From: Reclinomonas americana ATCC 50394
Taxonomy: Eukaryota
Length of the DNA: 48,910 bases
NCBI GenBank assembly: GCA_048213135.1
Contig: PS015013.1
Coordinates: 107,749 to 156,658, forward strand
Reading direction: 5' to 3'
In this document: positions 2-48,725 of the stretch, piece by piece
How the letters are laid out: every line of letters begins with the position of its first letter
How positions within the stretch are numbered: the first letter of the stretch is position 1
Program-made: the position numbers and the translations under genes
The notes under the pieces: generated by a model
Told to the model about the DNA's origin: nothing
The model's database searches: none
The model's input: the letters and a program-made list of their open reading frames with translations, nothing else

Positions 2-3000
2 GCCACTGTCGCGGCGGCGGCAGCAGCAGCGGCAGCGGCGGCAGCCGACGCCTGCCTCGAGCTCGATCGACTGCCTGCCCGTGCTGGCCGCGGAGGCGAC
101 GCCGGTGGAGATGCCTCGTACGCATCGTCGTCGTCGATCAGTCGAGAGGAATTCACTCCCATGTCGGCGTCATCGTCTGCGAAATGTGACAAGGTAAGTA
201 CAGATGCGGTCGGATGGCCATGGGAAGAGAGAGAGAGGCGCACCGTCAACGACTTCGTGCCGCCTCTTGTGCGGCGGTTGCAACATGGAGAGCTCTGCAG
301 CAGAGCGAGAGGGNNNNNNNNNNNNNNNNNNNNNNNNNNNNNNNNNNNNNNNNNNNNNNNNNNNNNNNNNNNNNNNNNNNNNNNNNNNNNNNNNNNNNNN
401 NNNNNNNNNNNNNNNNNNNNNNNNNNNNNNNNNNNNNNNNNNNNNNNNNNNNNNNNNNNNNNNNNNNNNNNNNNNNNNNNNNNNNNNNNNNNNNNNNNNN
501 NNNNNNNNNNNNNNNNNNNNNNNNNNNNNNNNNNNNNNNNNNNNNNNNNNNNNNNNNNNNNNNNNNNNNNNNNNNNNNNNNNNNNNNNNNNNNNNNNNNN
601 NNNNNNNNNNNNNNNNNNNNNNNNNNNNNNNNNNNNNNNNNNNNNNNNNNNNNNNNNNNNNNNNNNNNNNNNNNNNNNNNNNNNNNNNNNNNNNNNNNNN
701 NNNNNNNNNNNNNNNNNNNNNNNNNNNNNNNNNNNNNNNNNNNNNNNNNNNNNNNNNNNNNNNNNNNNNNNNNNNNNNNNNNNNNNNNNNNNNNNNNNNN
801 NNNNNNNNNNNNNNNNNNNNNNNNNNNNNNNAATGCGACTGCTCCAGCGCGACCAGCCGCACGCGCCATGCTCTCCGTACAGCAGCTCCCTGTCGTGTCA
901 CCCAGTGCCGACGACTCGCTTTCTTCAGGGGGCGACTCTTCGCCAACTCCATTGGTCCCATTGCAACAACCACCACTAAAAGCGGAGCTGCCACAACAAA
1001 CTGCACCTCCCGCTCCTCCGCCACCACCACCTCCCGCTGCTCCGCCGATGGTCGCTGCTGCATCGATTACCTCGTCGTCGCCCGCGCCGGCTTTGTTTTC
1101 TGGCGCCACGCCGGTCGCCGGCGCACTGGCGACCTCATCGCCAATACTGGCAACGCCGCCAATGTCTCTTGGTGCGGGTGCTGCGTCGCCGATGCCCTCA
1201 CCGCTCGTTCCGGTGCACACGAGTGGTACTCCGTCGATGCCCTCTGTCGCCGGTCGCATGCCCTCGCCCTACATTGGCGGTACTGCTGGTCCTGCTGCTG
1301 CCGCAGCCACACTACCGCCGGTGCTTCAGCTTACCGATTCAATAACGCTGGCCGAGTTGCAGTACCGCAACGGCACACTGGAGTTGCCGGCGACCATGAC
1401 GGGACGCGAGCAGCAGCTTGGCGAGTCTGTCGAGTTCCTGGTGGAGAATCTCGGTGCGTTCACATGCATATGCGTTTCAACCCACAGTGCTGACCAAGAA
1501 ATGTCGTCGCTTGCTCGCAGGCTACCCGTGCGTCATTATGGTGACTGGCGAGCAGGGCGTGGGCAAGACTTCGTTCGCCTTCCAGCTCCTCTCCGACATT
1601 CGTACCAAGCTTGGCGTGTCCAGCCGGCCAGTCTACGTCAACATGTCGGGCCGCGATCAGCGATCCTCGCTCAAGGACGCACAGGCCATGTTCCAGATCA
1701 TTCACCAAGTCGACTACAAGCAGAGCTGCCGTATCGGTGCGGCATCTTTCGGCGGTCGGCTCGGCGAGGTTGGTGAAAGTGGTCTCCGTTCCCTTGGTTG
1801 TTGCTGACGTGTATCGCGCACGCGCAGCATCTCCTTCACCGGCAGTACCAGCTGTGGCTCTTTGCCAGCACGCCCAGCAAGCGCCGCATCATTGTGTTGG
1901 ACAATGTGCAGACTGCGGCACAGATCGCGCGCCTCTTGCCATCCAGCTCCCATCTCAGCAGCTCGTCGACCTGTCGTGGTGCGCTCGTTTTTGCTGTTCA
2001 CACTCCATGCAGTCATGTTGTTTACCGTCATCGTCCGCGCGCAGAATCGTACCCGCCGCTGTTGATTGTGATTGCGGCCAACCAGTCGCTGCAGCTGAGC
2101 TGCGAGTCCCTTCATCGGTGTCACCTGCCACCGTGGACGGTGCGTGCTGTTGTTAGACCCTGTGTTCCTCCTCATTACGAGCGCTCACCAGCATTTGTGG
2201 CTCTCGTGCAGACCGAGGAGTGCAAAGTATTCCTCACGCGCTGCTTCCGCAAGGACTCCATCGACGCCCATTTCGAGGCCGTGCTCGACGACATTGCTGT
2301 GCGCATCAACGGATCGCCTCTGTACGCGCAGTTACTTGTCGGCTACCTGAAAGAGCACATGCGAGAGAATCCGCACGGTGACGGGATTCTGGGGGCGTGG
2401 CAGGCCTTCACCGACGGCGGTGCAGAGTTGGTGCGTCATCACAATGAGTGCTTTCCATGTGCCCTCTTCGTTCTTCCTCCTCACCACATGTGTACATGTA
2501 TATTGCATGCAGTCGGCAGACACGTGGCTTGGTCGCACGATACAACCGCTGTCGGAGGCAGCGCACAAGTTGATCTCGTGTCTGGCCACCTTCGGCGGCA
2601 TTCATCCCGTGTCCACTGCCGTGCTGCAGCTGCTCATGAAGGGCGTTTTGCTGCCACGTGATGGTACGTGGACCTGCGATGTGCGCTGGTGAAGGAAAAA
2701 AGCTCACCGTGCTCGTAGTTGAGGCGGCACTCGCCGAACTGCTGGCTCGCAACATGGTGCACTGCTGGCACGACTTGCGTCCGAACTTTGCCCTCGTGCT
2801 CGACGGCGAGCCGGAACACGTACTGCGGCGGTTCTCGCGCCTAGTGGCCGGCGCTTCGCGGCAAAAGAGTTGCGCGACGTGCACCTGCGCTGTAGATTGC
2901 CCTGCGAGCTGACTTGTGTTTCCTCTGTATGTGTTTTTGCATCTGTAGCCGACACGGTCGTCGACGCGACCATGGAGGAGAACGCGCTGGCGCTCTGCAG

Positions 3001-7233: not shown

Positions 7234-10200
7234 ATGCGCTCGGCACCACGTGTGCATTCCAAAGTTTCGCCCACTCTTCTCCTTCCCAACTCTCTCACAT
7301 ACACTCACACACACGCGCGTTCACAGGATGCAGAGGCGGAATCTGCATCGCCCTCGACGCTCTCCTTTGTGCTCTTTCTCGTGTGCATTGTGTGCGTGTG
7401 TGTGGCCGTGTGGAGCTTCGAGCATCCACTGTGGTCACTGCCGACTCCGGTCTCTGGCAAGGAGTGCCCGGCGGAGAGCGCCACGTGTTTCTCAGAGGAG
7501 CGCGCTCGTCGACACACGCAGTATCTCACGGAGACCATTGGCATTCGTTGCGCATCTGTCTCTTGCGCGCCTCTCTCTTTTCTTTGTTTTTTTGTTGTTC
7601 ATTCTTTTGTTTCCCCTGTGGCACTGCGTAGGACTGACGGGCACTGATGAGAATGAGATTGTTAGTGCGGGGTACCTGCTAAACGAATTCGAGGCGTTGC
7701 AGGTCGGTCCGGCTGTCGGTGTTTCTCCGCATTGAACCTCTGTCTCTTATCGCTCGTGTGTGTTGGCGGTGCAGGAGACTGCCAGTGAGAAGCTGACGGT
7801 GGAGGTGGAGCAGCAGTTCACCTCGGGCAATTTCTCCATGAGTTGCGCACGTTTGCATGCAGCTGTATGTTATAACAACAACGCATTCACTGGGTGTCCG
7901 CCAGACTTTTTGCAGCACGACTTGGCGCTGGTGTACTCGAATGTCACCAACATTCTCATGCGTGTGCGGGCGCGTAGTGATTCGGAGCCGGAGCATTGTG
8001 TCGTGGTCGGCACGCACTTTGATTCGACGATTTCCAGTCCCGGTTTGCTCACGATCCTCCTTGGTGGTGCTCGTGACCGCCCCCGCCACATGCGCGCTTA
8101 CTGGCATGTGTTTTTGCAGGTGGTTCCGATTGTGGCACGCCAGTGGGTATCGCGGTGGAAATGGCACGCGCGCTGACTCGTCCGGGTGCGGAGAAGTACT
8201 TTTCGCCGGGTGGCGAGATCTGCGTCGTGTTTGTGCTGAATGGCAGCGAGGAATTCGGACTGCTGGCCGCACACGGTTTCCTGAGCCATCCGTGGGCCGA
8301 GCGGTGAGTGGCATTTCCTCTCAGCTGCTTGGTTATCTTGCTCTCACAATCCTACAGCTCCTCGTTCATCGTCAACATGGAGGCCGTCGGTGCCGGCAGC
8401 AAGGAGGGTACGTCTGTCGTCCGTCGCTTTGGCGCACTGGTGTGCCTCGCTTAAACTTGCTGCTGCACGCGCACAGTCTTCTTCCAGACCGCCCCCGGCA
8501 ACCGCCACTTTGTGGAGACGTACTCCGAGTACGTGAAGCGTCCGCATGGCACAGTGCTGGTCCGTCGTTGTTGTTGTTGCCGTCGCGCGCAGTTTTGTGC
8601 GTCTGCTGAGTCGTTTTGCGTGCGTTCGATAGGGCGAGGATTTGTTCCAGCGGCTGCAAGTCATTCCCAGGTGCGTGTTGCAATGGGCGACGGCGTTGCA
8701 TGCATGTGTCATTGTTCTTAACTGCATCGTGTAGCGACACCGATTTCCGCATCTACCGCGATTTCGGCGGCATGCGTGGCTACGATTTCGCCGTGTACCG
8801 CAACAGGTGCGTGATGCTTTCATGTGACGGCGACTTGCACTTCCATTCACCACCACACGCGCACAGCCAAGTGTACCACACCGAAAAGGATAACATGGAG
8901 ATGATCACGCCCGGCACCATTCAGCATTACGGCGAGAACGTGTTTGCCGTGACCCGCGGCATCTTGGCCAACTACAAGAAGCTGGTGCGGAGCCGCTGTC
9001 TGTTGTTCTCTTGTCTTTCCAGACGTTGTTGCTTACATTGTCGCAGACGGAGACGGACGTGGAGGATGTCGCATACTTTGATGTTCTGAGCACGTACATG
9101 ATGTGGGTGCCGTCATGTTGCGTGGCTGCTTGTTTACCAGCAGAGGCTCTCTCTTTCTGTCGCTGACATACCAGTTTATATGACGATTAGCCGTTCTCCG
9201 CCTGATCCAAGTCTCCACATTCGTCATTACACTGCTGTTGCTGGTGATCTTCTCGCGCAACAAGCGTGGTGGCAACACCATTTTCCAGGACGCGTTGGTC
9301 GACACGGTGAGTGCGTTGTTGCAGTGTACACTCATGGTGACGATCACTGAATGTGCGTGCGTGTGTGTTTGCAGGGAGTGTTGATCCTCGCCGTGCTGTT
9401 CGCCGTCATTTTCAACGTTTGCGTGGCGCTCTTCGTGACACGTGTCATTGGAAGCCGCCTCTCGTTCTACTCGAACGGATTGCTCGGTGGTCTGCTGTAT
9501 GGCAGTGGTGCACTGTTTGGCTTCTTCCTGGCCATTCGTTTCAAGGTTTGGCAGTCGGGGGTGTTGTGAAAGAAAAGAGTGTGAGCGACTGACGGCGACT
9601 CACGCAGACGGTGGTTGCGGTTCTGGCTGGACTCATTGTCGCCATGTTGCAATACGTGCTGGTGCTGCGCGTCGCGTGGCGCATTGGCTCGCCGGAGGAA
9701 GTCGATGACATTACGTGGGTGTCGAACCTGGTGCCGTCGCCGACAATGTTGTACGGCGCGGCAGTGGTGATGGCCTCTGTGTCGCTGATTGTCGTGCCGT
9801 GGATGGGCGTGCGCCAGTTGCGTGGAATGTGATGATAATGGCATGTGGGAGTAACGTACCAACATTCGCGTTCAGCTTCGCGCACCGTCGTCGGACAGCC
9901 AAGGAGGCACCATCGCCGTTGACTCAGCGTCTGGCATTCGGATTCAGCGTCCAGTTCCTGACACTGCTTATCATGGCGGCACTGGCCGCTGGTCCGTCAC
10001 GATTTGTGTGTGCATGTGGTGATCGACTTCTGTCTCACAGTTTTCGCACAGGCGGTCTCGGTTTCACGTACCTGTTCACCATTGTGAGCATTGCCGGTGT
10101 GCTGTCCCTCGTGCTGGAGCTGCTGGGCAACGGTATCGTGCCCATGACTGTGCGTCTGTTGGTGTGCTGCGCGCCGATCTTGGTGCACGCGATGCACCTG

Positions 10201-11402
10201 TTCTCCAACACCACTGGACTGCTGTTCGGACTGTGTGGTCGCCTCGGCAAGATTGTGAGTGTGCCTGCTGATTCGTCTCACTGTATGTGCATTCTCATCC
10301 CATGTCATGACAGGACGGCGACATTGCGGTGGCGGTGCTGGTCGGCGTGTTCTCCGTGCTGACCCTGCTCATCGTGTTGCACTTTATCAACAGCACCGGC
10401 AAGGTCAGTCAGTATGCTCCGTCGTCGTGGAAATCGTGCTCTTCTCACATATTTGCACGCATCAGACCGACACTCTGCTCGTGTTGCTCGCCGTGGTGCT
10501 GGTGGCGTCGATTGCAGTCGCCTCCCACACCGCTCCATACACCGCCAACACACCAAAGCGTCTCTTTGCGCAGCGCAATTTCCAGTTGCGTGGGCGTCGA
10601 TGGTTTGTTGTCGTCGCACGAGCTGAAAAATTGATGTGCATGTGAGCAGTCAAGACCTGCGTGCTGCCGAGCCGCAGTGGAAGTCCAAGTACATTGTCAG
10701 CTGGCTCGACTCGGTCGCACTGGCCGAGGAGCACGCATCCAGGCTGGCCGGTGGAGCGCCACTGGTGCTTCACCACGGTTACCCGACAACGGCTTCGGAG
10801 TATTTGGTGTGTGTGTGTGTGTGTGTTGCTGGAGCGGCCGCGGTCCTCGTCACGGTGCTCACTGCTTGCCGTCGTGCAGTCTCTCTATCCGGTTCACATT
10901 CTGCTGTCGGGACTGTACGAGTGGGGCCACAGCACCAAGGAGACACCGGAAGTGGTGCCGACCATCACCGTGCTGAAGGACACGATCGATGTCATGGTCT
11001 GTTCGCGTCGCACCTTGCTTCTACCTGCCTGCGCAAGGCTGTGACACGTACTCTCCCACACAGGGCAAACGACGCATTGAGCTCGAGTTCGACCGCGTTG
11101 CCAAGGAGTCGCAGTGCGTGCTCCGCATCAGTGGCCACCTGGTGAGCTGGGACGTGGTGGAGGGCCTCGTCACCGAGCAGCTGATGGATGCCGCCGAAGA
11201 CGGCAAGCCGTTCACGGCCTACATCCGCCAAGTCGGCCCGGAGACACGCTGGCGCCTGCGCATAACCGCAGAGCCCGACACTGGCGTGCTGCTGAACCTG
11301 GCCGCCAGCTACTGGAAGACCGTCCTAGAGCATGCCCACACGCTACCGGAGTGGACCACCAAGTTGCAGATCGAGGAGGTCATCGTCACAAAGGCGCTGT
11401 GA
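7234..11402 (+). CDS. ERMP1: ER membrane metallopeptidase, M28 family (ERMP1/FXNA-like)
   Basis: FSEERAR..IGIRLTG, VVVGTHFDS, GGSDCG, LNGSEEFGLLAAHGF, VNMEAVG, SDTDFRIY and YHTEKD motifs, followed by multiple hydrophobic TM segments; about 19 introns; TGA at 11402. Confidence 0.9.
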
Positions 11403-11537: not shown

Positions 11538-14500
11538 ATGCCACCGAAACGCAACAGCAAGAGCGGTGCGTGTGTGTGTTGACTGCGTGCATTTCGTCAT
11601 GCATCCTTTCTCATATGAGAGTGCGCAGCAGCCTCGGCAGCAGCCGCAGCTGAGCCAATGGACACGGACGCGCAGGTTTGTCAAACAACAGCTTCTGCGG
11701 TGGTGGCGACCTCACACTCCACTCACATTCTGCACTGTGCACAACACAGGCAGCAGCAGCAGCAGCCGTGGTGGTGGCCTTTAGTGGTCAGTTCGGATGC
11801 ACCGAGGCGTCGCTGGGCAAGACGGTCGAGTCGATTGGAGGCTCCTGGTCGCGCTCTGTCACCAAGAAGGCAAGTGTGCACGTTCGTTGTCTTGCTGTGT
11901 GCATGTTTGCTCATGACTGCCCACGCACACGCAGGTTACGCATCTGGTGACCACTCTCGAGGATGTCGGTCGACATGCACTCGGCGAAACGGCATTCGTC
12001 AAGGTCGCCAAGGCGGTGATGGCCAAGCTGCCTCTTGGTTGCGTGCTCCTCCCTCTCCCTCTTTCCCTCTATCTGTCTGTCTCGCACTCACCGCTGCACT
12101 GTTGCCAGTGAATCGCGAGTGGCTGACCGAGTCCGACGCGGCCGGCTCGTTCCTGCCCGTCGACAAGTTCCTCATTGAGCTCGAGGTGGCCAAGGCGGCC
12201 GTGGAGGCCGTCAGTGCCCCTCACCAGAAGAAGCGTGCGGCAGCGTCGGAGGCCGCTGAGGAGGAGGAGCTGCCGGGTGAGCCGACTGCTGGCATGCATG
12301 TGCCGCGTGTTTTTTTTTTGCTGACAATATGGGGGTTTTCTCTCTGCAGCCAAGAAGCGTGCGAAGCGTGGAGCCAAGGCCGCGGAGACGACGGCCACTG
12401 ACGACAGTGAACCGGCTGCTGCGGAGGCCCCTGCAGCGGCGGCGCGTCCGAAGCGGGGCGCCGGCAAAAAGGCTCCTACGGCTGCGGCTGCTGCGACGAG
12501 CCCCACCAGTGACATGGATGTGGACGCGGGTGAGACGGAGGCAAAGCCCGCCGCCAAGGCCAAGAAAGGCAAGGCGGCCGCCAAGGCCGCGACCAAGACG
12601 GAAAAGGCCGACGATGCCGCCATGGCCGGAGACGAGGAGGAAGAGGAGGCGGCGCCAGCGGCCAAGGGCAAGAAGGGCAAAAAGGGCAAGGCGGCAGCCA
12701 AGGCCACCGCCAAGACGGAGAAGGCCGACGATGACGACGAGGAGGAGGAAGAGGAGGCCGCCCCGGCAGCCAAGGGTAAGAAAGGCAAGAGCGGCAAGAC
12801 TGTGGCTGCTGCTCCCGCCGCTGCTGCCACAGCTCCCGCTGCTGCTGCTACGCCGGCCTCATCCAGCCGCCCGCCGGATCCGTTCACCACGGTGCCCCGC
12901 GATCAGATCGCTTCGGTGCCGCGCGATGTGGCCAAGCCGAAGGCCATCAAGGCCGCCAGTGCGCCGCCGTTCCCCTCCAACTACGTCATTCTCAAGCACG
13001 TCGGTGAGTCGCACGTTCCCCCCGAGTGATCTCATCGATGCACACTCATGCTCCCATTTCCTCGCAGTGCTGCAAGGTATGTGCGTATCGCAGTGCACTT
13101 GTCTGTCCCTGTTTACTGATTCGTCGCGCTGCAGTGACCGACATCAAGGACAACCACAACAAGTGTGCGTGTTGCAGCAGCGCTTGCTTTGTGTTTAATC
13201 TACTGCTTATTCTTCCCCCTCTCCAACGCAGACTACTCGATGGAGATCCACGAGGCGCCTGGCGGCCACTACCGCATCTACAGCCACTACGGACGCACCG
13301 ATGACCTGCAGTCGAACCCGGTCTGTTATCCGATGCATGCAATCGCATTTGTGGCTGCATCCACTGACTTTGAGGCTGCACAGAATGCTGGGCAGCGCGA
13401 AGTGCGCCTGTTCCCGAGCTTGCCTGCCGCGTGTGCCGGTTGGGAGATCCTGTACAAGGTCTGTGCGTGTGGCCACTGATTGCATTTTTCTCGAGACAAC
13501 TCATTGGAGTGCTACATGAGTGTAGGACAAGACCGGCGGTAGCAAGGGCTACCGTCCGTGAGTGGCATCCACCATTCCCATTTTCTCGCGCTTCTTCATC
13601 GTCTCGCTCACTGCGTCGCAGGGTGAACTTGGCGTCGTCCAAGATCGGCTCGGAGAAGGCAGTCGGTGCCAGTGTCGGCGAGGTCGGCGCAGCCACCTTG
13701 GCCAAGTCGACCAAGGCCTCTGGTGCGCCGGCAGTTGCGTTGCTCTCTCTTCTCCATTTGACCTCGTGCACGCTGACACTCATCACTCGTGAGCAGGCCG
13801 TCAAGGCACCTGCCGTGTCGACACTCGACTCGCGTGTGCAGGAGCTTGTGCGAGTTGCGTAATAATATCCTCCCCCCGATCGCGCCAGCCCTGCGTGCTC
13901 ACTGTGCGTGGGCAGTACATTTACGCCGAGGCCACCAATGCACTCACGTCGGCCGTCAACTGCTCCATCACGGCGCACGGTATTGAGACGCCACTGGGCG
14001 TGCTGACCATGGAGCAGGTGGAGCGCGGCGAGGCCATCCTCAACCAGATTCTCGGCGAGGTGGAGAGCAGCAAGCCGAACAGCGCCGTGCTGCAGCGTCT
14101 CTCCAGCGATTTCTTCACCGCCATTCCGCACCGCATCGGTCGTTCGCGTGCCGATATCGAGGCCTCGGTGCTGACCACCAAGGACAAGGTCAAGGCCGAG
14201 GAGGAGTTGCTGCAGGTACGCGCACACACATGTCTTGTAGGCCTCGCTTTTTCATGGCACTCAACGTCTGTGCGCAGCTGATGAAGGACATGTTGCAAGT
14301 GGATGAGGCCGGAGGCAGCGGCAGTCACGTGCTCTTCGACAATGTCGTTGACGACCAGGTTAGTGGTAAGACAAGCGCGTTTGTGCATCTGTATCCTGAA
14401 CATGTGGCGGTGCTGGAATGCAGTACAAGGCCCTCGGCTGCAACGTCGAGTTTGTGCCGCCGTCGTCGCCCGACTTTGCGCGCATTCGCGACCACGTGCT

Positions 14501-15704
14501 CAAATCGCGCGTAAAGTCGTGCAACCTCAAGGTGCGATCCTTTTCTCTCCTTCTCGCACTCACGCACACACACTCACTGCATGCTCCAGGTGGCCAATAT
14601 TTACCGCGTGCAACGCCCCGAGGAGACCGCACGATACACGGGCGACAAGATCGGCAACGAGCGCATGCTCTTCCACGGTTCCCGCATTCAGAACTGTTTC
14701 GTGTCGCTGCATGCACACCAGCATCTCTTCGCCGTGTGACTAATCACCACTGGTGCATGCAGGGGTCGGCTTGTTGTCGCGTGGCCTGCTGAGTTGCGCC
14801 ACTTGCACACAAACAACTGTGTTTCCTCCTCGTCTGACTTGTTTTGTGTTTGACCAGTGCCCAAGACCGTCGTCTCCATGGGTATTCGTCGTACCGATGC
14901 TGGTGAGTGCATGCATATCTCTTCTTGTGCCAAGAACAACATTCCTCATCACTCACGGATGCCTTCCGACGTACAGGCTGGGTGAATACACTCTCTTCTA
15001 TGACTTATAAGATAAGAACACACAACTCATCACGTGCTGCAGCTCGGCAACGGTATCTACTTTGGTGACGCATCGTGTACAAGCGCGTACTACACCTCGC
15101 CGGGGTACGTTGTCGTGCGTTGTGTGCTTCCCGTGTCTGCCACAAGTGCCCATCAGTTTTCACCACAGACGCAATCGCAACACTCGCTTCATGATGGTGC
15201 TGACTGTTGGGCTCGGCAAGATGAAGGTCTGTGTATGTGTGTGCACGTGAACCGACTCGGTCGTCATTCTCACCGCACTGTTGCCGAACAGGAGTACACC
15301 AAAATCACGTACGGCTTGACGTGAGTGTCGCTCATCGCATGTGTACTGCTTTCGATTTCGCTGTGCACTGATCGCGGTGCTGTAACAGGAGCCCGCCGAA
15401 CGGCTACGACAGCTGCCATGGTGTTCGCCGGTGCGTGCTACTTTGCTATCCTCCCTGCTCGAACGGTAAACCAACATTTTGTTCTTCCGCAGCACATCTG
15501 GCGTGCACAGCGAATTCTGTGAGTGGTGCCTCTCCCCTCTTCTTTTGTTCTTTGTTTCTCATTCAATGCAACAGCCGACGACGAGTACTGCATTTACGAC
15601 CTGGCCCAGCAGGTTTGTTGGTGCTGTTAGCTGCGTGCACATGGATGGTGTGTCGCTCATTGGTCGTGCAGAAAATGGACTGGCTGGTCGAGTTTAGCAT
15701 GTAA
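11538..15704 (+). CDS. Poly(ADP-ribose) polymerase: BRCT, K/A/E-rich linker, WGR-like (YGR), regulatory helical domain and PARP4-type catalytic domain
   Basis: BRCT (VAFSGQF..SVTKKVTHLV..LPLVNREWL); WGR-like NHNKYYSMEIH..HYGR; regulatory domain TPLGVLT..LSSDFFTAIPH; catalytic triad H (FHGS, 14674), Y (GIYF, 15058), E (DEY, 15583); more than 20 introns. Confidence 0.92.
11870..11934 (+). other. GC-AG intron in the PARP BRCT domain
   Basis: AAG|GCAAGT...GCAG|GTT restores SVTKK-VTHLV; strong GC-donor consensus. Confidence 0.85.
12541..12790 (+). repeat. Duplicated Lys/Ala-acidic linker unit within the PARP CDS
   Basis: KKGKAAAKA(A/T)xKTEKADD...EEEEEAAPAAKGKKGK occurs twice. Confidence 0.85.
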
Positions 15705-15983
15705 GCAGCGACTCCGAAACACGCCACACACCCTTACCCAATCCATCCCCCAATCCTTTGCGAAAGCCTTCTCTCTGTCTCCCCACCCAATACCCTCCAA
15801 TCAATGAACACGTTTTTGATGCATTTTGTTTTGGGGTCTGTGCTTGCAGTGAGCACAGGGGTACAGGCGGCATATAGAGCCATTACGACAGGCGAGCCGG
15901 GTTCACCGGCGGCACCACCACTGGCCGCGCTTGCCCTGCGTAGTAGTTGTTGACTGCCATTCGCTCTGCACAGAAAAAAAGCA

Positions 15984-33200: not shown

Positions 33201-36200
33201 TACTCGAACCACTTTGTGGCGCTGGTCGCTCGCGCTCCCGGCTTCAAGGACACGAACTTCCCGTGCCTGACCGCCAAGTTCGAGCTGGTGGCCACGATTG
33301 CGCCGCGTTGCGCCACCATCAGCCGTCGCTCTGCGTCGACAGTGGTGTCTGGTGAGGGAGCGAAAGTGAGAGTGCCTGCGTACCATCGCGATCTCACGCA
33401 CTGTGTGATGCAGGTCTCGCCGACAAGATCTCCGATCCGAAGCTCAAGGGCGTTCCCGGCCGCTGCCTGATGGCACTGTCGGAAGCCGTGACGCCGCGCT
33501 ACGTGGCCGGAGTACTGCTGCGCAATGTCGATGGAGCCAAGTGCGTACGCAACTCGGTCAAGTGAGCGAAATGCCGGTGACTCACTTTGATTTCGTCGCA
33601 GGAACCCCAAGGTCATTTCGTCGGCATTAGAGTGGCTCAACGAGGCGCTGGACGACTTCACGCCCGCCATGTTCGACATCCGCACCTTGATTGACACGAC
33701 CAAGAAGTGTCTCATTGAGCAGACAAACCCGGCGGTCAAGGCCGCCTGCATTGCCATTGTGGGCACGCTGCGCAAGTTGCGTCTGAGACACACACACACA
33801 TTCATGTTGATGATTACCGGTGTCGTGCGTGCTCATGCGAGGCTCGTCGACAGGCATCTCGGTCCGCCAGTGGCCGATTTCTTTGCGGGCCTCCCTGCTG
33901 CGCAGCAGCAAGTCGTCGATCGCGAAATTGCGCGCATTGCCGAGGAGTTCCCCACGCCGCTCGCTCTGGCCGGTGAAGGACCGAAGCGATCTGTGCATGC
34001 TCCGGGTGCGGAGAATGTGGTGCTCGGCGGAGCAGGAGGTGAGATTCCGAGCAGTGCTCGTTGCTTCGCACTGCTTGTCACTCACCGCTGACTCTTGCAG
34101 GTGACTTGCTTCCTCGCAACGATATCACGAACGAGATCAAGGCTCGCACGCTCGCCATTATTGTGGAGGAGAAGGAGAAGTGGCAAGACCGCGTGGCGGC
34201 CTTGAAGGAGATCGAGGGCATCTTCAACGCCGCCGGCAACCGCATTTGCGGCAGCATTGGCGAACTCGTGCGCTCCATCAAGCGCTGCCTCAGCGCCAAG
34301 AACCTCAATGTGGTCTCCTCGTCGCTCCAGCTACTGGCGTTGACGGTGACGGCCTACGGTCCCGACTTTGACAAGTACGTCAAGGTGGTGCTGGGTGCGA
34401 CGATGCAGAAGCTGGGTGACGCCAAGACACACATTCGTGCGGCCGCTCTGGCCGTTGTGGATGCGTGCGCCGCCGAAGTGCAGTTTGACCATTTGGTACG
34501 TGGTGGGGTGAGATGAGTTTTCTGTTGTTGCACGACGGCTGACACGGGAGGGTGATGCAGATTGCCGATGCCGCCGCCAGCTTGGCCAACGAGTCGCCAG
34601 TGTTGCGAGTCGAGCTGTGCCAGTTCTTGCTGAAGAACATGCAGGCACTGTACTCGGAGCACGTGCAGCTGGGCCCACTGGTGAAGCCAGTTATCAATCT
34701 GTTGTCGGTGCGTCACACTCTTGTCGTCGAGTCGCTAAAGATGGCGAGCTGTCGCAAATCTGTTGACAATGAGTGTGTGTGCGCGCACGCAGGATCGCTC
34801 CCCCGACGTGCGCCGTGTGGGCAGCGAGCTCATGGTGCCAATCATTCACCGTGTTGGCGTCGAGTCCGTCCGCCGTGCTGTGCGCGACCTGAAGACCGCC
34901 GTGCAGCAGTTGGTGTCGCCGGTGGTGGAGCGCTGTGCGTCACAGCCTGTTCCCGACGGCATCATGCTGCCGACGCACTCGGATGCCGACCACTCGGCGG
35001 CCACCCCGTCGTCGGCGTCGTCTTCGCACACATCGTCAAGCGTCACCACCACAACAACGACCACCACTACTGCGCCGACTGCGACACTGGGCAAGTCCAC
35101 TGCCGCCGACTCGGACAAGGAGAATCGTCCAAACACAGCCGGCAGCATGTCGGCCACTGGCTCGGTGACTGCGCGTGGCAGCGGAGGCGCAGCACGTGGT
35201 GCTCGTCCGGTGAGTGTGTTCTGTTCCGTCGTGCAGTTTGTGTGTCTCTAGTTGGCCAGACCATAGACAGCGCATTGTCTTTTGCTTCTCCTATTCGCCG
35301 TCTGTCACACTCGTGTTCACATTGCTCTGTGTATGTGTGTGTATGTGTGTTTGTGCTCTTTTTGTGTTTTCCCCTTGTAATCGACCAGATGAAGGGCCTT
35401 AACAACGTGTGCCCACCGTCGTCCACGCAGGCTCCTGCCCGAAAGGCATCGGCACCGAACGTGGGCACGTCGGCGGCCATTGAGAAGGCGGCGGCTTTCA
35501 AGGCCAATGATCAAAAGGTGAGCGATCGATCATCGCCGTGTGCGCCCCTGCACGGCATTCCTCCTCATGCTGGTGTTGTGCAGGAAGCACGCGCTCGCCG
35601 TGAGCGCAAGATCAAGTGGCAGTTTGAGGAGCCGCGCCCCGAGTTTGTCGGTGTGTATGTGTGCTGTTTGTGCTGCCGTCAATCGTCACAACTTGCTGAA
35701 TGCGAAACAACAACAACAACAACAATAACAACACAGAGATGCTGCGTGAACAACTGACCGCCTGCGTGAGCGAAGGAATTCTCGGCAAGATGATGTCGAA
35801 CGATTTCAAGCTGCACGTTGAGGCGCTGGCAGACATGCAGGCGTCACTCACGACCCAAGCAGAGGAGGTCATCCAGTCGCTGGACGCCATTCTCAAGTGG
35901 TGCTCCCTGCGCATGTTTGACTCGAACACGACGCCGGTGATGAAGACGATTGAGTTTGTGTCGGCCCTGTTTGCCATGCTGGCACAACACCAGTTGCGTC
36001 TGCGAGGATGCGCACAACGAGCACGAAGCCGCCTTTCTTGCCTCTGACTCATTCTGCGATCGCCACGCAGATATGTGCTGTCGGAGTTCGAGAGCTACTT
36101 GTTCCTGCCGTTCTTCATTGACCGCCTTGGTTCCAACAATGCACACGTTCGCGCTGCCATGAAGGAGCTTGTCAAGGTGTGAACACGGCACTGAGTATGC

Positions 36201-39200
36201 GTTAGCCGTGCAAAGTAATTCTGACCCATCTCTGCTCAGCTGTCGCATGACGTCTGCAACACGTTCCGTCTGTTCACCTACATCATGCGCGGATTGGAGA
36301 GCAAGAACTCCAAGACGCGTGCCGATTGTATCGAGGAGGCCACTGTCATGGCCCAGAAGTACGGTTTGGCGGGCGTGGCGCAGAATCCGGAGCGCGTCCT
36401 GCGTTCGGTCACCGCCAACCTCAAGGATCGCGACAACAACGTGCGACAAGTCACGCTTGCGTTCACCGAAATCGCCTATGCGCAGCTCGGTATGTTGGAC
36501 GCGCACACTTCACTCTCCCGCTGTTGTCTCTAAAACAGTGCGTGCCACCAACGCAGGCGAGGACATGTGGCGGTCATTGAAGGCGCTGCCGGATCCACAC
36601 AAGGCCATGATCGAGGAGCGTCTCAAGTACTCGCATGTGGTGCCGGGCTCGATGGCCAGTGGCGCACAAGCAGCACAGGCGGCCGATGAAGACACGGCTC
36701 AGTCGGGCTCGCTGTTCTCTTCCGACGACGAGGACGACGATGGCGAGGCGGAGGAGCAACCGACCCGCGGCTTTGGCGGTGCAGCTGCTCGTCTGCCGGC
36801 GGCGGCTCGCGGTTTGCCCGGCAGTGTGCTGGCGCAGCACATTCGTGCGCAGTCCACCGAGTCGCACGACTCATTCGGCAGCAGCCTGGCCGATCACGCC
36901 CCAGCTCACGTTGCCATGGGTCCGCCGGCGCCAGTGTCGTCGATGCATGCAGTGTCGCGGTCGATTGGCTCGACTCCTGTCAGTCAGTCGGGAGACGAGG
37001 TGATGCACCCGATGGGACCACCGGTGCCGGTGATGCAGCAGCAGTCGTCGCAGCCGGCACTGCGGCGTGTCGACGAAACCCCACAAGTTCCCTCGCGCCG
37101 TGCCTTTACTCCGCAGTTTGACGAGGCACCGACTCCGCAGTTGCCGTATCGCGCAGCCAAGTGCGTCAACATGTGTTTTGTCGTTCGTGGCGAGGTCACT
37201 CTTGCTCACCCACTGGGGTTTTATGACACAGTTTGGTGGGTCTTCGCGTGGTCGAGGAGGATCGCAGTCCGGTCGACTTGATCAGCGAGTTGATGAGCAG
37301 CACCGACGACGACGCCGTGGTGGAGAGTCTGCGACGAGTGTGCAACAAGCTCAACTCGGAGGAGCAGTCGATCTTGCCTGTGGTGCAGCAGCTGGTCAAC
37401 GCGTTGACCTTGCAGCTCCAGCGCGGATTCTCGAGCACCCGCGACTTCCCGCAGCGCATGTGCAAGTACGCGCTGAATACGCTCATGCAATTGTTCTCGC
37501 GCAAGACGATTGCGGCGGCGGTCACCAGCGAGTCGCAGAGTGCCCTGGTGCACGAGTTGCTCAAGGTAATTGCGGTTTCACTGCCAGTTCCTCCCTTTAC
37601 TCTATAGTCTGTCAGTCTGACCCCACGCCCTGCAGCGTCTGCTGGACCCGAATCTCACGGACCTGCCCGATGGCCAGACGCTTCTGCGCGGCCTCAACAC
37701 GCTGATGCACAAGTTGTTGGAGAACAGCGACCCGAATATTTCATTCGGCACGCTGTTCGGCATCCTCAGCTCGTGCCTTAACGAGCACCTGCATACCAAC
37801 GACGGCAACGGTGACGCTGAGTCGCCGGAGAACAAGACCATCGAGTTGCTGGCCAAGTGCATTCTGCGCATGACCAAGAGCATCCGCCAGACCGACCGTG
37901 GAGTCGATCTGGCGGCCATTCTCAAGCAGCTGCACGCGTTCTTTGTCGCCCACCCGCCACACACGATCAAGAACCGCTACAATGACCTGCCGATCCGCAC
38001 GGCCAAGACCGTGATCAACGAGCTGGTGCGGTGTCACGGTACACGCGTTCTGGAAGTGTGCGACGGTTTGCTGGCTGCCAGCGAGCTGGAGCACTCTGAC
38101 GAGGAACCCATTATTCGCCAATACGTCGACATGATGATCCGCAACAATGCTACTCGGCACGGCTCTGGTGGTGCGTGCGCGTTCTTGTCATTATCTCTCA
38201 CTAGATGGTGTGCTGACCGACGCCTGCGCTGCTCCACAGATTCGTCGGCCTCGTCATCCTCCGACAGGCCGCCATTAGCGTCTGCCGGCAGCTCTGGTAG
38301 CATCACCGGCACCGCCGTGTCGACCATGCCGACTGCCAACGGCGATGGGCGACCAACGACGGCGCCAGCGCGCATCGACGACACTGCTGCGGCTGGTTTG
38401 CCGGCGCAGGAAGACGGTGCGACCGACGGTGACGATGCAATCTCTGCTGCGCAACAGGACGCACAGCAGCAGAATTCGTCGCAGCCGGGCAAGGTGCTGA
38501 CGCCCAACAAGCGTTTGGCTGACATTTTCCGCAAGGTCGGCAACAAGAACACCACCCGCGAGGGACTGCGTGACTTGCACGCATTCCGCCTCGACAACCC
38601 AGACGCCAACCTCAATCCTTTCCTGGAGAAGATGTCCAAGCCCTTCCAGCAGTACATTTGGAGGAACTTGGAGAAGTTGGAGAAGGTCTCGGAAGACCGC
38701 CGCAATCGCTCGAGCATCATTGCTTCGGGTGACGGTGGTGACGTGTCGTCGCCGTCTGCCGCCGGCCCCATGCCCGCTGCATCCGCGCTGCCACCAGCAC
38801 CGGGACCCGCGTCATTTACGCCATCACGCACGTTGCCGTCGAGACCGTCGACGGCGAGCGCTGCGGCCCCGCCAATGCGCACATCGGCCGCCGAACTGGC
38901 CGAGATCAAGAACCGCCTCGACAGCCTGCGGCAGAACAAGCGTTGCGTGAATGCGGGAAGCGCATGAAAAAAATTGTTTGTTCGTGCACTCACTGTGCCG
39001 TGTTCTGTATGTACAACAGCCACGAGCCAGTCGGTGGCCCTGGATCCACCAGTGTCGTCAGTGATGGCCGCGAACGCCAATGCCAACGCGGCCAGTGCTG
39101 CTGCCTCCATTGGCTCACCGGCCGTCGATTCCAGTGCCGTGCTCGAGCGTTCGCGCCGGCTCTTGATGAAGTTGGCCGAGTCGCAACAGCAACACCAGCG

Positions 39201-43000: not shown

Positions 43001-45684
43001 TCACGGGGCATCAAAGTCCACGTGGCGATAGTTTGGATCCAGCACTTGAATGCGGAAACCGTTGTCCACGACACCCTTCGCGTGCTGCAAGTCCACATTG
43101 CCGGCGTTGGCCTGCAGAGAGGTCAGTAAATCAACAGTGCATGCTAGAAGCGAGTTGCACCTAAGTCTCATACCAGTTGCAGCACGGCCAAAAAGGTGCG
43201 CGCCACCTCAAATCGTGGTGGTGGTCGCTCGTCTTCGTCGCTCCGTACCGCCTCGGCAAAACCAACACCGCGCTCTGCGAACAGGCGTCAGTCAAGTCGA
43301 TCGCGAGAGAACAGCTTGCGTATAAAGTGCTCGCACTCAACTCTCTGCGCCCTTGCCAGACAGTGTGCCGAGCACGCGTGAGCCGTACTGCTCAATGGCG
43401 AATGGATCGTGCGTCTCTTCCTCGTCAATCCGCTCCCGAATGTAGCGCTGCCAGCTGTTTACCCGCTGCGTCAGCTGCGTTTCCACGGCGTACTTTTCGG
43501 CCTCGGACATGTATGCGGCCTGCGACAGCCAACAAAGTGAGCACAAAAAGAGTGCACATTGTCAACCCGTGCACGACACGCAACGACATGCTTGCGACAT
43601 AGTTGCTCGTATGTGATGCTGCCCATGTCGCCCATGTCGTCGTGGCCACTTCCGTGCAACTGTTGCCATGCTCGAGCACGTCCCATCTGCCAGCAACACA
43701 TCAGATACTGTGGTCTTGCTTCGTGTTCATCTGTGTGCACACACGCACCGACTGCGATCCTGCCTCGTCCATCTGGAATTCGGCATCCCAGTCCTCAAAT
43801 CCCGACGCTCCACCACTCTGCTTCTCCAAATCGCCCGCGGCTGCGCCTGCTGCCTTCTCACCCCAGTACACCTCTGCTGCATCCATGTCACCACCGCCAC
43901 CACCGTAGTCGTAGTCGTCCACGTCGTCGTACTCGTCGTCGTCGTCAAAGTCGGACTGCGCCACAATCACACCAAATGGATTGACGCCAGCGTTCTCCTT
44001 GCCACCCTGTTTTTTCCCCTCATTGTTAGCACTGGCGACAAACATATGCACGCTGGAGAAGTGTACGAAACCTGGACGATTCGCATCTGTGGTCGCCGAA
44101 GCTGCTTCCACGCCGTATTCCTCCGCTTCCGTTCCCTCGTCCACCACTCGGTCGGCAAATTCAGCACCTGGGAATATGCGGGTGAGCTTGCGCGGCGCAC
44201 GAACGAGAAAGACTGTCGTGCGAGTGCGCAACGTTGGAGTACAACGGGAGGCCCTTGCCCGAATTGCTGGTGACACTCATCACCGCCGCATGGGCCTTTT
44301 GCAGCTCACGCAGTGGGTTCACGTTGACGGCGGAGATGCCCACAATCGACGCCACTGCAATCGCCGGTGTTACAGTGGGAATTCGTGTGGTACTCTTCTT
44401 GCCCAGCGGCTTCTCCGGCAGCGCCCCATCCTCCAAGCTATCATACAACACCACTTCGTCAGTGACTCAGCGCGTGCATCGTCGCTCTACAAACACACAC
44501 ACCTGTGCGGATCCAGTGGAGCCAGCACATCGATTTGCTCCTCCTCAGGTTCCTGCTTCCACGGCACCTCCATCATGGCCGGCATCTGCGCCAGCACTGG
44601 TGCACCGCCCGCTCGCTCGTCCACCTGGCTGGATGGCAACGCGGCATCCTCCTCTGCGAAACCGGCTTCCGGATAGTGATCGTCGTCGTCGTCGTCGTCA
44701 TGATCGGGGTAGTCGTCATCGTCGTCGTCGCTGCCGTCACGCGCCGCCGCCATTTCACCGGGCGCCACCGGTCGTGGCACGTTGCCGAGAAGTCGCGGGA
44801 AGAAGAGACCCATATCCGAAGGGTCGATCAGCAGCGCACCACTCTCGTGCATGGTTGACGAGCGCACACGCAGTCCATTCGAACCCGGCGACAAACTGCC
44901 GCCCGCATCGTTGCCCTGCGTGTGGTGATCAGCTCATGCGCGGGTCACAGCACCCAGTCACCACACGCCTTCACCTCTCGCAAAATTGCCACAGAGCTCG
45001 GTGTCACACTCCCAATGCCAGCCTCCGACGCCGTGCGCTTGCGTGACGCCAAGATCGATGAAGCGCGCAGACTAATGGCCGCGTCGGTGCTCACTGGAAT
45101 GTCGTCCAGTGGCAGAAACGCTACCTCGCCTGCGTGCGCAAGTTCGGCGTCATCCGCCTCGTCGGCCTCTCCTTCTCCATCACCACCTTTTCGCTGACTG
45201 CTCGCATGCGAATGAGGGCGAGAGGTGATCTACATAAGAACACAAGAAGACACTCACCGCTGATTGACCAAGAAGCTGAGCGTGCGGTTGACCAGCTGGT
45301 ACAACGACTCGATCTTCTTCGAGAGCGCCAGTGTGGATCCCTGAATGAGCAGAGCGGCTGCACGAAATGCATCATCAACATCATCATCATCATCATCAAC
45401 ACACGGTCTCCCTCTCTCGCACACACACCTTCCGCAAAGTTGATCTTTGTCAGCCCACCATCAAACGACACCACCACATGAGACAGCTCCTCGAGGTACT
45501 CCTCGAGTTGTGCGGCCACGTCGACCTTCCACGAGTCGGCCAACTCACTGACGATGTGATCGAATGAGTGATCGATGAGAGATCTCACTCCCAACCACCA
45601 ACACACTCACCGCAGTGGTTTGAGCAGCTCGGCAAACCGATGCTGCTGGCTCTGCTGTGATGAGGAGCCACCTTCGTCGTCCAT
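43001..45684 (-). CDS. NCAPH2: Condensin II kleisin subunit CAP-H2
   Basis: N-terminal RFAELLKPLRELADSWKVDVAAQLEEYL..INFAEAALLIQGS; C-terminal TYEQLCRKHV..HDPFAIEQYG..FEVARTFLAVLQLANAGNV. The 3' end is slightly uncertain because the TGA overlaps a GTGAGT. Confidence 0.9.
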
Positions 45685-45770: not shown

Positions 45771-47998
45771 ATGTCTGAGGCAGCCGCTGCTCCGTCGCTG
45801 ACCGACGGAGATGGGAGTGGCAGTCGCGGACCGCGGCATGCACCCATCAAAGAGCTGATTCAGCGACGATGGTCACAGCGTCGACAGAAGCGGCAGAGTG
45901 ATTTTCTGCTGCGCCAAGAATCGGTTCCGTGTGCAGCTGGCCCCTCTCTCCCTCTCCCTCCTCTCTCTCTCTTTCTGTTGTGATCTCACATCCTTCGTTC
46001 TTTGTGTGAATGAGCAGCTGCGTGCAGCCAAGCTGGCCACTCTGCGACTGGATTACGGGTCGGAGTCGGAGGCTGAGAATGACGACGACGACGACGACGA
46101 CGACGATCGTGGAGGCGTGGGGCGTCGTCGCGGAGGAGGTTTCGTGTGGCATTCTATCCTCTGATCCTCATCCGTCCTCTCATCAGTGGTCTCCCTCCCG
46201 CAGGTCGTCGCCGAGGTGGTGGTGGAGGGCGGCGACACGCCAAGGTCTGCATGCGGTGCCATGTGTTGTCTCGCTTGTTTGTCTCACGTTGAGAGGGATG
46301 CAGGGCGCGGAAGAGGAGGGATGGATGGAAGTTGCTGCGGATGCAGAGGCCGAGGAGGAGGCTGAGGCGCCGGCTCGGGCTCGTCGTCGTGATCGGGAGC
46401 CCTTCATGTTGCCCGAGTGGCTCATCACGCCGCCGTCGGACCTGTGCAGCAGCCTGTCGTGGTTTGTACTGATGCGACCCGAGGGAACTCGTTGTTTTGT
46501 CACTGCGCGAGGCGGACGCACCGTGTCGCGCAAGAAAGACGGTGCGCGCGCGCGCGTGTGTCAGACTGGAGATATTGCTTGTGGGGGTGACTGACATGCT
46601 TCCCCTCCAGGTCGTGTGTTGCATCGCTTCCGAAGCAACTTGCCGGGTGGTGGGGGCGGTCCGATGCCGCTGCCTGGCCGACCGCTGCCACACAATCTCC
46701 AGTCGCTGCGCTTCTCGTCGTCGCCGACGGTTCTCGACTGTGTCTTTTGTCCGCACACCAATCAGTATCTGGTGCTCGATGTGCTGACGTGGCGCGGCAT
46801 GGAGGTGCACCAGTCGCCCTGTCAGTTCCGTTTTGCGTGGATGCAGAGTCACTTGGAGGACTTTTGGGCCGAGAATGCGACGGGAATGCCGCCGCCGACT
46901 ACGGGTGTCGACGTGCAGTCGCCACCGAGTCGCCGCTCCCGTCGTCCGACCATCACCTACTTTCCGGTTACACTTTTGCCGCGCGCAGTCGCCACACCCG
47001 AGTCGGTGACCATGGGTTGCGTGATCTCACTGCAATCTGTATGAACCCGCATCGTCGCCAACAAATGCTGACGCTGTTGTCGTGCAGCCTACACGGAGCA
47101 AGACTGTGGCTTTGTCAAGGACGGCCTGCTCTTCTACCATCGCTATGGCGTGTACACCGACGGCACCTCCCCACTGGTGCTGCTATGGAAGGATCCGGCC
47201 ACGTGCAGCTACTTTGACTCGGTTCGCCAGTCGCCGATTGTTGCGTTCACATTTGCTGCTTTGTTCATCCTCCTATCCCGTTCCACTCACGAACTCGTTA
47301 TACGGGAGCAGGAAGCGCGTCTGCAGATTGATGCCGATCTGCTGTTGGTGACGGGCGACCACCCGCCGGTTCCAGTGGTGCAGCTGACTGCCGAGCAATG
47401 TCCACAGTTGGCCACGCACGTTTATGAGCAGGAACAGATGCGTACGATGCAGCTCGGTGGGCGGGCGAGGCGGCGAAAGCCCAAGCCAGTGGAGCCTGGA
47501 GTGTTTTTGCGAGTCGGTATCGATGCAGCACTGGTGGCCGAGGCGGCGACAGCCATGGGCGCAACCGCAGGCGATGCACCACCGGCGGCGTGCATCGCTG
47601 CCGAGGCTCTCGTGTACGACAGCATACCGCAGGACCAAAAGTCGTTCCCCGACAGGTACGCCTCGTCACCACCGCGCACCGGGGAGTGGGGCGTATTCTC
47701 TCTCCCTCCTTGAACTAACACTTTCTTCGAGTGCAGCTGGAGCAAGATTGTGTTCCAGGCCATTTGCTGTGCGGGCGAAACAATACCAATTGACGAACTG
47801 GTCGCCTGCGTGGAGGCTCCACCACCGGAAGATGAGGTGGAGTGCGGTGCCCTCGCGCCGTCATGGATCGAGGCAGGGGATGCCGACGCAGGAGCGGCAG
47901 CAGAAGAAGAATCATCGCAGATGGTGGTGAGCGGTGCCTCTGCGGCCGCTCCCCTCGACGACTACGGAGCCGGCAGTGGCTCGTGGGGTCCCACCTGA
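45771..47998 (+). CDS. SNUPN: Snurportin-1 (m3G-cap snRNP import adaptor)
   Basis: Basic IBB-like N-terminus; FMLPEWL..W..RPEGTRC; FRSNLPGG; TVLDC; YLVLDVLTW; FRFAW; DGLLFYH..YTDGTSPLVLLWKD; DSWSKIVFQ. Confidence 0.9.
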
Positions 47999-48093: not shown

Positions 48094-48725
48094 TCATTTC
48101 ATCTTGGCCGACACATACGAGCCAGACTCGGGCGCCGACGCAGACGCACCAGCCACCACAGCCGCTGCAGCAGGAGAGATGTGAGCGCCCACACATGCAC
48201 ACACACACACAAGCAAGAAGGGACGCACCGGGAGCATGCAAGGGAGCATCCAAATCACTGAGATGCGACTTGATGGTCGTCACACGCCGCCGCACTCCAC
48301 CCAGCGTATCCCGCACCCGCGATAGCCGCTGCCGTGTATTCGCCAGCGTCTGTGCACCCTCCACCAATCCCGGAAACTCGCAGCTCCCATCCACCGCACT
48401 CAACGCTGTGCACATCCTCAATCATCAATCACACACGCAATCACACACACGTGCGACTGCAAACAACGCAACTGGCCAGCAAGCTCTCCACGCGCTCCAT
48501 CAGATCACCCTGCGACTTGCCCAGTGACGACAGTCGCCCATCCAGCTGGTCAGTGATTGGCCTCAGCAGCGCCACAAAGCCCGCGGCCAGACGCGCACTC
48601 TCTCCACTGCCACTGGCCGCCTCACTGCTGCTGGTGGCAGTGTTGCTGGCACTGCTCTCCTCGTCACCGCTCTCGCGCTCTACTGCAGGCGGAGGAGGAA
48701 CCGCACTCGCCTCACCTTCTGACAT
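48094..48725 (-). CDS. Small coiled-coil protein, Snapin/pallidin (BLOC-1 subunit)-like
   Basis: LAAGFVALLRPITDQLDGRLSSLGKSQGDLMERVESL..LANTRQRLSRVRDTL resembles the Snapin/Pallidin pattern; 2 introns. Confidence 0.65.

Follow-up and report, generated by a model that had tools for sequence, protein, structure and literature searches.

A frequent second class of GT donor, GTTGCG, with its intron consensus displaced by one base in a gene-dense stretch of the Reclinomonas americana genome

How does a spliceosome read a 5' splice site whose conserved G lies one base too far into the intron? The question is raised by a 48,910-base stretch of the genome of Reclinomonas americana ATCC 50394 (contig PS015013.1, positions 107,749 to 156,658; hereafter the window, with coordinates counted from its first base), where many introns appear to start with the hexamer GTTGCG, carrying G at intron position +6 instead of +5. 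A preliminary description of this stretch had posited a second, frequent 5' splice-site (donor) register, and had explained it by routine bulging of a U at +2/+3 or, alternatively, by variant U1/U6 snRNAs or protein cofactors. We find that these sites are real donors of a frequent second class, which confirms the earlier observation. The explanation that we favour, at a probability of about one half, is that major-type spliceosomal introns here use a second, near-invariant donor, N|GUUGCG(U/C), whose 5' splice-site helix would be read one base out of register. The frequency and register results derive from this one window of one organism, and the case built on them is one of sequence evidence.

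The window is 58% G+C, contains eight runs of N, and is densely filled with genes that are each split by very many short introns, typically of 55-85 nucleotides (nt) and typically ending in a CT[C/G]AC-like branch motif 15-30 nt upstream of a (G/A)CAG acceptor. Donors were placed by two procedures that hold no donor model. A protein-to-DNA spliced aligner (BLOSUM62) accepted any GT/GC...AG intron at a flat penalty and was given reference proteins found via single-exon queries, three for a GH31 alpha-glucosidase gene, two for an XMAP215-like gene and six for a PARP gene; donors agreed by at least two references were taken as homology-fixed, and these three genes yielded 47 of them. Independently of protein references, a donor-blind gene parse combined self-trained 3-periodic coding statistics, a model of acceptor and branch site, a prior on intron length and exact tracking of the reading frame, and knew nothing of donors beyond GT (or a penalised GC). 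Homology-fixed introns and donor-blind parse introns together form a merged set of 143. A further, donor-informed parse used donor matrices learned from this merged set; it is circular and serves only as an estimate. The donor-blind parse recovered 21 of the 47 homology-fixed donors and the donor-informed parse 37 of 47, the misses being mostly due to very small exons. Since the parses are imperfect, the homology set gives the firmest estimate of how frequent the class is.

In that set, 7 of the 47 donors (15%) read GTTGCG. Two lie in the PARP gene, both placed by all six references: the intron at 13854-13915 (+, phase 0), ungapped across VQELVR|YIYAEAT, and that at 14793-14857 (+, phase 1) in the catalytic domain, ungapped across LSRGLLmPK. 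Two more lie in the GH31 gene, at 26693-26756 (-, phase 0) and, within its N-L-YG motif, at 28660-28729 (-, phase 1), each supported by three of three references together with the donor-blind parse. The XMAP215-like gene holds the other three, at 30353-30446 (+, phase 0) in the first TOG domain, at 33776-33853 (+, phase 2) and at 35993-36070 (+, phase 2), all by two of two references; the donor-blind parse also called the last of these and missed 33776. Alignments were printed for one or two references per gene, and in them all seven junctions stand in ungapped, conserved sequence, examples being N-L-YG (GH31), LSRGLL-M-PK and VQELVR-YIYAEAT (PARP) and QH-Q-YVLSEFE (XMAP215).

The same class emerged from the parses. 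GTTGCG was the top donor hexamer among the 126 introns of the donor-blind parse, with 17 cases, followed by GTGCGT (13) and GTGAGT (9), and it is the commonest donor hexamer of the merged set (21/143, 14.7%), where two of its introns, with donors at 23898 (+) and 16027 (-), lie beyond the earlier list. The donor-informed parse, circular as it is, gave 26 of 147 introns. Raw abundance alone is not striking: the window holds 69 copies of GTTGCG on both strands (38 +, 31 -), where base composition predicts 30.5 and a third-order Markov model 57.8. What stands out is their position at intron starts. Within gene spans GTTGCG accounts for 37 of 3155 sense-strand GT sites versus 21 of 143 donors (odds ratio 32, p 1e-19); of the 38 copies on the sense strand, 20-26 begin an intron.

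The preliminary description had listed 28 GTTGCG sites and 7 'twin' sites, all of which are present in the sequence as written. As donors, 19 of the 28 are supported by homology or by the donor-blind parse, and a further six (7842, 9817, 10585, 13734, 23038 and 23778) by the circular donor-informed parse only. Site 30620 abuts an N gap; homology ends an exon there and the sequence downstream looks intronic, its 3' end being lost. For sites 44232 and 47240 neither homology nor either parse gave support.

Could the cut lie elsewhere? Cutting 3 nt further on, at the GC, would stay in frame and would create a stop in only 2 of the 21 merged-set cases, and at 9817 the donor-blind parse itself took the GT 5 nt downstream. 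Nevertheless, it is very improbable that these sites are not donors, whether through a cut at either of those positions or as an artefact of gene prediction. The printed alignments (P0002, P0022, P0037 and P0041) are ungapped with the GT cut at all seven homology-fixed junctions, the GT 5 nt downstream alters the frame and is absent from 9 of the 28 listed sites, which read GTTGCGC, and the enrichment appears without any donor model. A GC-AG cut, GTT|GCG, was rejected on the ground that it would add a residue at junctions that are ungapped with the GT cut; the downstream GC that had been put forward as a possible refutation is therefore not borne out. Donor status is thereby demonstrated, as is the frequency of the class.

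Dividing donors by the base at +3 gave a clear outcome, in that G moves to +6 after GTT. Among the 38 merged-set donors with T at +3, G stands at +5 in 9, at +6 only in 25 and at neither in 4, versus 76, 5 and 24 of the 105 donors with another base at +3. The homology set behaves likewise, with +5 G in 2/11 and +6 only in 9/11 when +3 is T, and in 32/36 and 2/36 when it is not. Only 2 of the 47 homology-fixed donors lack both G's, and the merged-set donors with neither are therefore probably for the most part parse errors. After GTT, the +6 G exceeds background: it occurs in 9 of 11 homology-fixed donors as compared to 20 of 138 decoy GT sites with T at +3 in the same genes, where +5 G occurs in 47.

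The displacement extends to the rest of the intron-side signal. All 21 GTTGCG donors have G at +6, and their +7 base (T 16, C 5) resembles the +6 base of the 85 ordinary donors (T 56, C 16), such that the GTTGCG consensus from +3 (T, G, C, G, T/C) equals the ordinary +2 to +6 consensus moved by one base. The core UGCGU is common to this class and to the commonest ordinary donor, G|GUGCGU. These results establish that the second donor register is real and frequent, as had been claimed, and that its intron-side consensus is displaced by one base.

The related proposal, that ordinary donor types each have a 'twin' with an added T, stood in part. It holds at 14696, where a GTTTCG intron (14696-14762, +), with G at +6 and none at +5, is placed by six of six references across HGSRIQNwVGLL, and at 43341, where the donor-blind parse calls the sole GTTGAG intron (43275-43341, -). 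The idea does not scale: 46139 is called solely when the parse is donor-informed, 5040 (GTTGGG), with G at the usual +5, is not diagnostic and needs no special reading, and 21289, 45924 and 44071 found support in neither homology nor the parses. Across the merged set, the 25 GTT..G donors comprise GTTGCG 21, GTTTCG 2, GTTGAG 1 and GTTTTG 1; ordinary donors vary more (GTGCG 22, GTGAG 19, GTGTG 12).

An extra U after GU could be accommodated in two ways. In one, the U at +2 or +3 would be looped out of an otherwise ordinary U1 helix, leaving the +1 G opposite C8 and the exon -1 base opposite C9; in the other, the whole helix would be shifted by one position. On the intron side the two models fit equally well, and single-base bulges at +2/+3 are a validated register in human cells according to the sections of Tan et al. 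(2016, PMC4856993) drawn on here. The exon side separates them, because a bulge keeps exon pairing and the exon -1 G should therefore persist. Instead, -1 G is found at 2/21 GTTGCG donors versus 69/85 ordinary donors (p 1.3e-9), and in the homology-fixed set at 0/7 versus 29/34 (p 3.5e-5). The -1 base is A in 9/21 GTTGCG donors versus 4/85 ordinary ones, and across the earlier list of 28 sites it is A in 15, C in 6, T in 5 and G in 2. In base composition, position -1 of GTTGCG donors agrees with the ordinary -2 column (chi-square p 0.68) and disagrees with the ordinary -1 column (p 1e-20). When exon bases are scored with the ordinary columns moved by one, this shifted model beats the bulge model by 25.8 nats, and the bulge model falls 24 nats below plain background.

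Loss of the -1 G is demonstrated by these counts, and it is more than the known trade-off between intron-side and exon-side signals, because even the strongest ordinary donors (GTGCGT, GTGAGT) hold -1 G in 22/31 cases (p 1.3e-5 versus the GTTGCG class). A bulge could suit the two GTTGCG donors that have -1 G (12038 and 47016), as well as the GTTTTG donor at 26982 (intron 26915-26982, -; G at +6, three of three references), which is the sole homology-fixed GTT donor to retain the exon -1 G and is not itself GTTGCG. As the explanation of the class, however, a bulge appears unlikely, the routine bulging proposed in the preliminary description does not survive the exon-side comparison, and the shifted register is favoured over it.

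Two homology-fixed donors outside the GTT group also have G at +6 only. GTGCTGT (intron 32167-32235, +) and GTGCCGT (33063-33144, +) both keep the exon -1 G, and their extra base sits at +4/+5, not at +3. They may represent genuine bulges; two out of four cases of this kind is within chance.

We propose that ordinary G|GUGCGU and |GUUGCGU would be the same U1-type site, differing by one substitution and by a cut one base further upstream in the latter. The UGCGU core would then be one base deeper in the intron, and no G would be needed on the exon side: the intron's own +1 G would stand opposite U1 C9, in the slot usually filled by the exon -1 G, the U at +2 would form an internal mismatch in the shifted helix, and +3 to +7 would pair as +2 to +6 do in ordinary donors. 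The cut itself would be fixed later by the GU dinucleotide via U6, U5 and Prp8. We infer this U1 register, and with it one base of slack in the later U6 pairing.

Duplex energies were calculated with ViennaRNA for the textbook U1 5' end (this organism's own U1 may differ), with no pseudouridine or protein terms. In this framework 64/85 ordinary donors fold in the expected register. Forcing the helices for cca|GUUGCGUCU gave +1.0 kcal/mol for the shifted, +4.8 for the canonical and +7.1 for the bulged form, the shifted helix being 6 kcal/mol better than the bulged one, which further disfavours a bulge.

Several of our own results weigh against a shifted helix with a textbook U1. Even when forced, the shifted helix for cca|GUUGCGUCU is, at that +1.0 kcal/mol, not stable, and the best duplexes of GTTGCG donors average -1.5 kcal/mol, weaker than those of random GT sites (-3.0) as well as those of ordinary donors (-6.7). 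Pairing would be far better with A at +5 (cca|GUUGAGUCU, -3.4 kcal/mol forced and -5.8 best), yet GTTGCG outnumbers GTTGAG by 21:1, while ordinary GTGCG and GTGAG are found 22 and 19 times (p 6e-6). On exon bases the shifted model beats plain background by 1.8 nats only, and the absence of any exon pairing is therefore nearly as good a description. Lastly, 14 of the 21 GTTGCG introns come from our own donor-blind parse, which recovers 21 of 47 homology-fixed donors.

The poor relative pairing rank of GTTGCG is hard to explain away by the terms missing from ViennaRNA. In addition, C occupies +5 in 23/25 GTT..G donors, while the matching ordinary +4 position is mixed (C 27, T 27, A 25, G 6; n = 85; p 7e-8). 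Poor pairing with the textbook U1, combined with this near-invariant C, suggests that U1 of this lineage, or a variant copy of it, differs, or that another component reads UUGCG, which adds weight to the alternative of variant snRNAs or protein cofactors in the preliminary description. A lineage-specific adaptation of a small nuclear RNA (snRNA) or cofactor is therefore probably part of the mechanism by which a shifted helix would operate, because the textbook U1 5' end pairs so poorly with the motif. An Rfam search of the window returned no RNA gene and no snRNA.

The same observations could be turned into a different explanation, in which UUGCG is recognised by a reader of its own, be it a variant U1 gene with a 5' end complementary to GUUGCG(U), a U1 5' end that has changed in this lineage or a protein with sequence specificity; to speak of a register would then be misplaced. 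Textbook U1 pairs with these donors less well than with random GT sites; the class is near-invariant (21 of the 25 GTT..G donors are GTTGCG, with C before G in 23 of 25) beside a loose ordinary +4; and it has no exon consensus. All of this would be expected of such a reader. However, the motif is the exact ordinary core UGCGU moved by one base, a coincidence that a separate reader would not need, and conservation of the U1 5' end is, to our knowledge, almost universal. In silico changes at U1 positions 5 and 6 (16 variants) brought no clear gain in separating homology-fixed donors from 802 decoys, the best area under the curve being 0.834 versus 0.822 for the textbook sequence. We hold a dedicated reader to be possible, and only tentatively so. 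Its more specific form, two donor specificities within one major spliceosome in which ordinary G|GURNGU donors coexist with N|GUUGCG(U/C) donors that have a dedicated reader, for example a second U1 variant or an altered U1/U6 able to pair with UUGCG, is rather doubtful.

In their remaining signals GTTGCG introns resemble the others. A strict branch motif, CT[ACG]A[CT], is found in 16/21 GTTGCG introns versus 62/85 ordinary introns, C at acceptor -3 in 18/21 versus 79/85, and median lengths are 71 and 67 nt, respectively; branch and acceptor signals are thus demonstrably shared between the two classes. U12-type introns, whose donor motif is RTATCCTT and whose distinct, strongly conserved branch site lies near the acceptor, were considered and rejected, since the GTTGCG donor differs and its branch motif, acceptor and length match those of other introns.

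A motif common to many short introns of similar length might also point to a mobile intron family (introners) carrying GTTGCG in a shared end. This is scarcely credible and was rejected: GTTGCG introns share no sequence past +7 except low-complexity T/G-rich words (low-complexity 8-mers only, the best pair having 7 in common), the inverse motif CGCAAC occurs in 0/21 of them, and their branch and acceptor signals are those of other introns. Such T/G-rich words are somewhat commoner inside GTTGCG introns than in ordinary introns; TTGTTT, for example, occurs in 6/21 versus 3/85 (p 0.002, uncorrected for the 31 tests made), which might hint at a U-rich element that assists weak donors. Intron phase also differs, phase 1 being in excess in GTTGCG introns (13/21 versus 20/68 ordinary introns of known phase; p 0.01). 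One-base sliding from the common phase-0 introns, which would yield an excess of phase 2 instead, was rejected.

The GTTGCG introns of the merged set beyond the seven homology-fixed ones were called by the donor-blind parse. One of them, in the BRCT part of the PARP gene (12038-12108, +, phase 1), is also placed by one of the six references (P0037), whose printed alignment matches around the junction, the other five being placed differently there. For the rest the donor-blind parse is the sole source. Two fall in the XMAP215-like gene, in a low-complexity linker where homology is uninformative (32737-32807, +) and in the C-terminal part (38942-39019, +). Others fall in genes whose names are our own reading of the predicted proteins: 2869-2948 (+) in what we take to be an NB-ARC/TPR-like gene; 7547-7631 (+, phase 1), where cutting 3 nt further on would bring a TGA into frame, and 9117-9190 (+) in a presumed M28 (ERMP1-like) peptidase gene; 23898-23959 (+) in a presumed thioredoxin/PDI-like gene; 24207-24270 (+) and 24929-25001 (+) in a presumed PDI-like gene; 43520-43584 (-) in a gene that we take to be condensin-II H2-like; and 47016-47087 (+) in a presumably snurportin-like gene. 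The list is completed by 48406-48472 (-) in a presumed small coiled-coil gene, by 15966-16027 (-), where a TAG would come into frame if the cut were 3 nt further on, and by a GTTGCG donor with an uncertain acceptor (18836-19030, -, 195 nt as called).

The six sites called by the donor-informed parse only correspond to candidate introns at 7842-7904, 9817-9875, 10585-10649, 13734-13796, 23038-23109 and 23778-23851, all on the plus strand. Coding logic cannot decide on the first, because it is 63 nt long, in frame and stop-free; that at 13734 lies in an unconserved PARP linker and is placed by 0/6 references, and at 23038 the donor-blind parse took an in-frame GT 6 nt upstream. A word-based protein search with the M28 exon at 8122-8301 gave no reference, and because no M28 reference protein was found, support for the five M28 sites comes from the parses alone.

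Gene content includes the GH31 alpha-glucosidase, XMAP215/ch-TOG and BRCT-WGR-PARP genes and an NDR-type kinase, and no close relative was found in the protein collections, where best identities were 54-58% over single exons (raphidophyte, amoebozoan, animals, oomycete). The nearest named PARP relatives belong to Heterosigma and Balamuthia (at most 58% identity), and GH31 and XMAP215 matches are animal or oomycete (at most 54%). A metagenome scan queried with a 435-aa exon found no relative, and a protein atlas yielded no taxon.

Intron density is very high, with approximately 20 introns in the GH31 gene (25525-29535, -; roughly 875 codons) and approximately 24 in the PARP gene (11658-15704, +). 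Some internal exons are tiny, namely those of 5 nt (14977-14981, +) and 9 nt (13068-13076, +) in the PARP gene and of 8 nt (28156-28163, -) and 11 nt (28233-28243, -) in the GH31 gene. Spliced alignment supports the 5-nt exon in 6/6 PARP references, the 9-nt exon in 3/6 and the GH31 pair in 3/3. The donor that follows the 5-nt exon, GTGAAT at 14982, lacks G at both +5 and +6, as does the GTCGCC donor of intron 28866-28938 (-), placed by 3/3 references; ordinary donors can be loose. A possible GC-AG intron (11870-11934, +; donor GCAAGT) is placed by the only PARP reference to span it; the donor-blind parse took a GT 6 nt downstream instead. In the XMAP215-like gene, the piece at 30814-31196, between N runs at 30727-30813 and 31197-31308, is coding on the minus strand, opposite to its flanking exons (plus strand). 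It encodes residues ~84-210 of the first TOG domain, with alignment scores of 179/172 on the minus strand versus 31/28 on the plus strand, and is probably an inverted contig in the scaffold.

If the shifted reading is correct, a genome can turn the register of its 5' splice-site helices into a regular trait under selection, and these introns would offer a natural system for studying what fixes the cut when U1 is one base out of step with the cut site, as well as a test of whether snRNAs or cofactors co-evolve with donor classes. Were a dedicated reader to be involved instead, about one intron in seven would rely on a recognition step of its own, potentially under separate regulation. In practical terms, gene finders with a single donor matrix would miss or misplace ~15-20% of introns in this genome; the donor-blind parse itself read through or misplaced several GTTGCG introns.

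Out-of-register donors are not without precedent. Roca and Krainer reportedly described a shifted register at rare human 5' splice sites in 2009, and bulged +2/+3 registers are said to have been described by Roca et al. in 2012. A full-text literature search that combined the motif letters with splicing terms, supplements being outside its scope, returned no such donor class among the matches listed, which held primers and sequences of no relevance. In human cells, shifted and bulged registers of the 5' splice site with U1 have been proven, and all validated noncanonical registers together account for 1.5% of 201,541 sites, as given in the sections of Tan et al. (2016, PMC4856993) used here. 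The same sections put U12-type sites at 0.36%, and their Table 3 lists 68 of the 201,541 sites as predicted +2/+3 bulges, 54 after curation.

GTTGCG donors are most like the human shifted (+1) register as outlined in those parts of the paper (PMC4856993), in which the GU at the cut is kept, U1 pairs move by one position, an intron G replaces the exon -1 G, a G-U follows downstream at +6/+7 and the exon -1 consensus is lost. Human shifted sites are, in the same text (Tan et al. 2016, PMC4856993), rare and A-rich in their core, with ACA|GUCAAGUAUA as the model site, whereas here a GCG-core motif with very weak textbook-U1 pairing starts ~15% of introns, more than any other donor hexamer. With +2/+3 bulge sites the GTTGCG class shares one extra U after GU and a remaining intron consensus moved by one base; unlike those sites, which retain exon pairing, it has lost the exon -1 G. 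A trade-off between strong intron-side and exon-side donor signals is set out in the portion of Parker et al. (2025, PMC11732430) consulted, and a strong intron-side class without exon consensus beside a class leaning on the exon -1 G is found here too; the two trade-off classes, as presented there, share one register (+5 G), whereas the present intron-side motif is displaced by one base. Like U12-type introns, GTTGCG introns form a discrete minority class with a near-invariant donor motif and no exon consensus, but the motif is unrelated, branch, acceptor and length are those of other introns, and the frequency is ~15%. Departure of a lineage from the textbook donor is also reported for the tunicate Fritillaria borealis, in which 95% of introns lose GT/AG and, in the excerpted text (PMC13326754), the authors leave a shifted U1 register open; by comparison with that account, GT-AG is kept here, and the departure is confined to a minority class whose downstream consensus has changed register. 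The near-invariant requirement for GTTGCG is not explained by the known out-of-register mechanism. On the reading favoured here, a known class of mechanism, the recognition of donors out of register, would have been raised from a rarity to the commonest donor motif.

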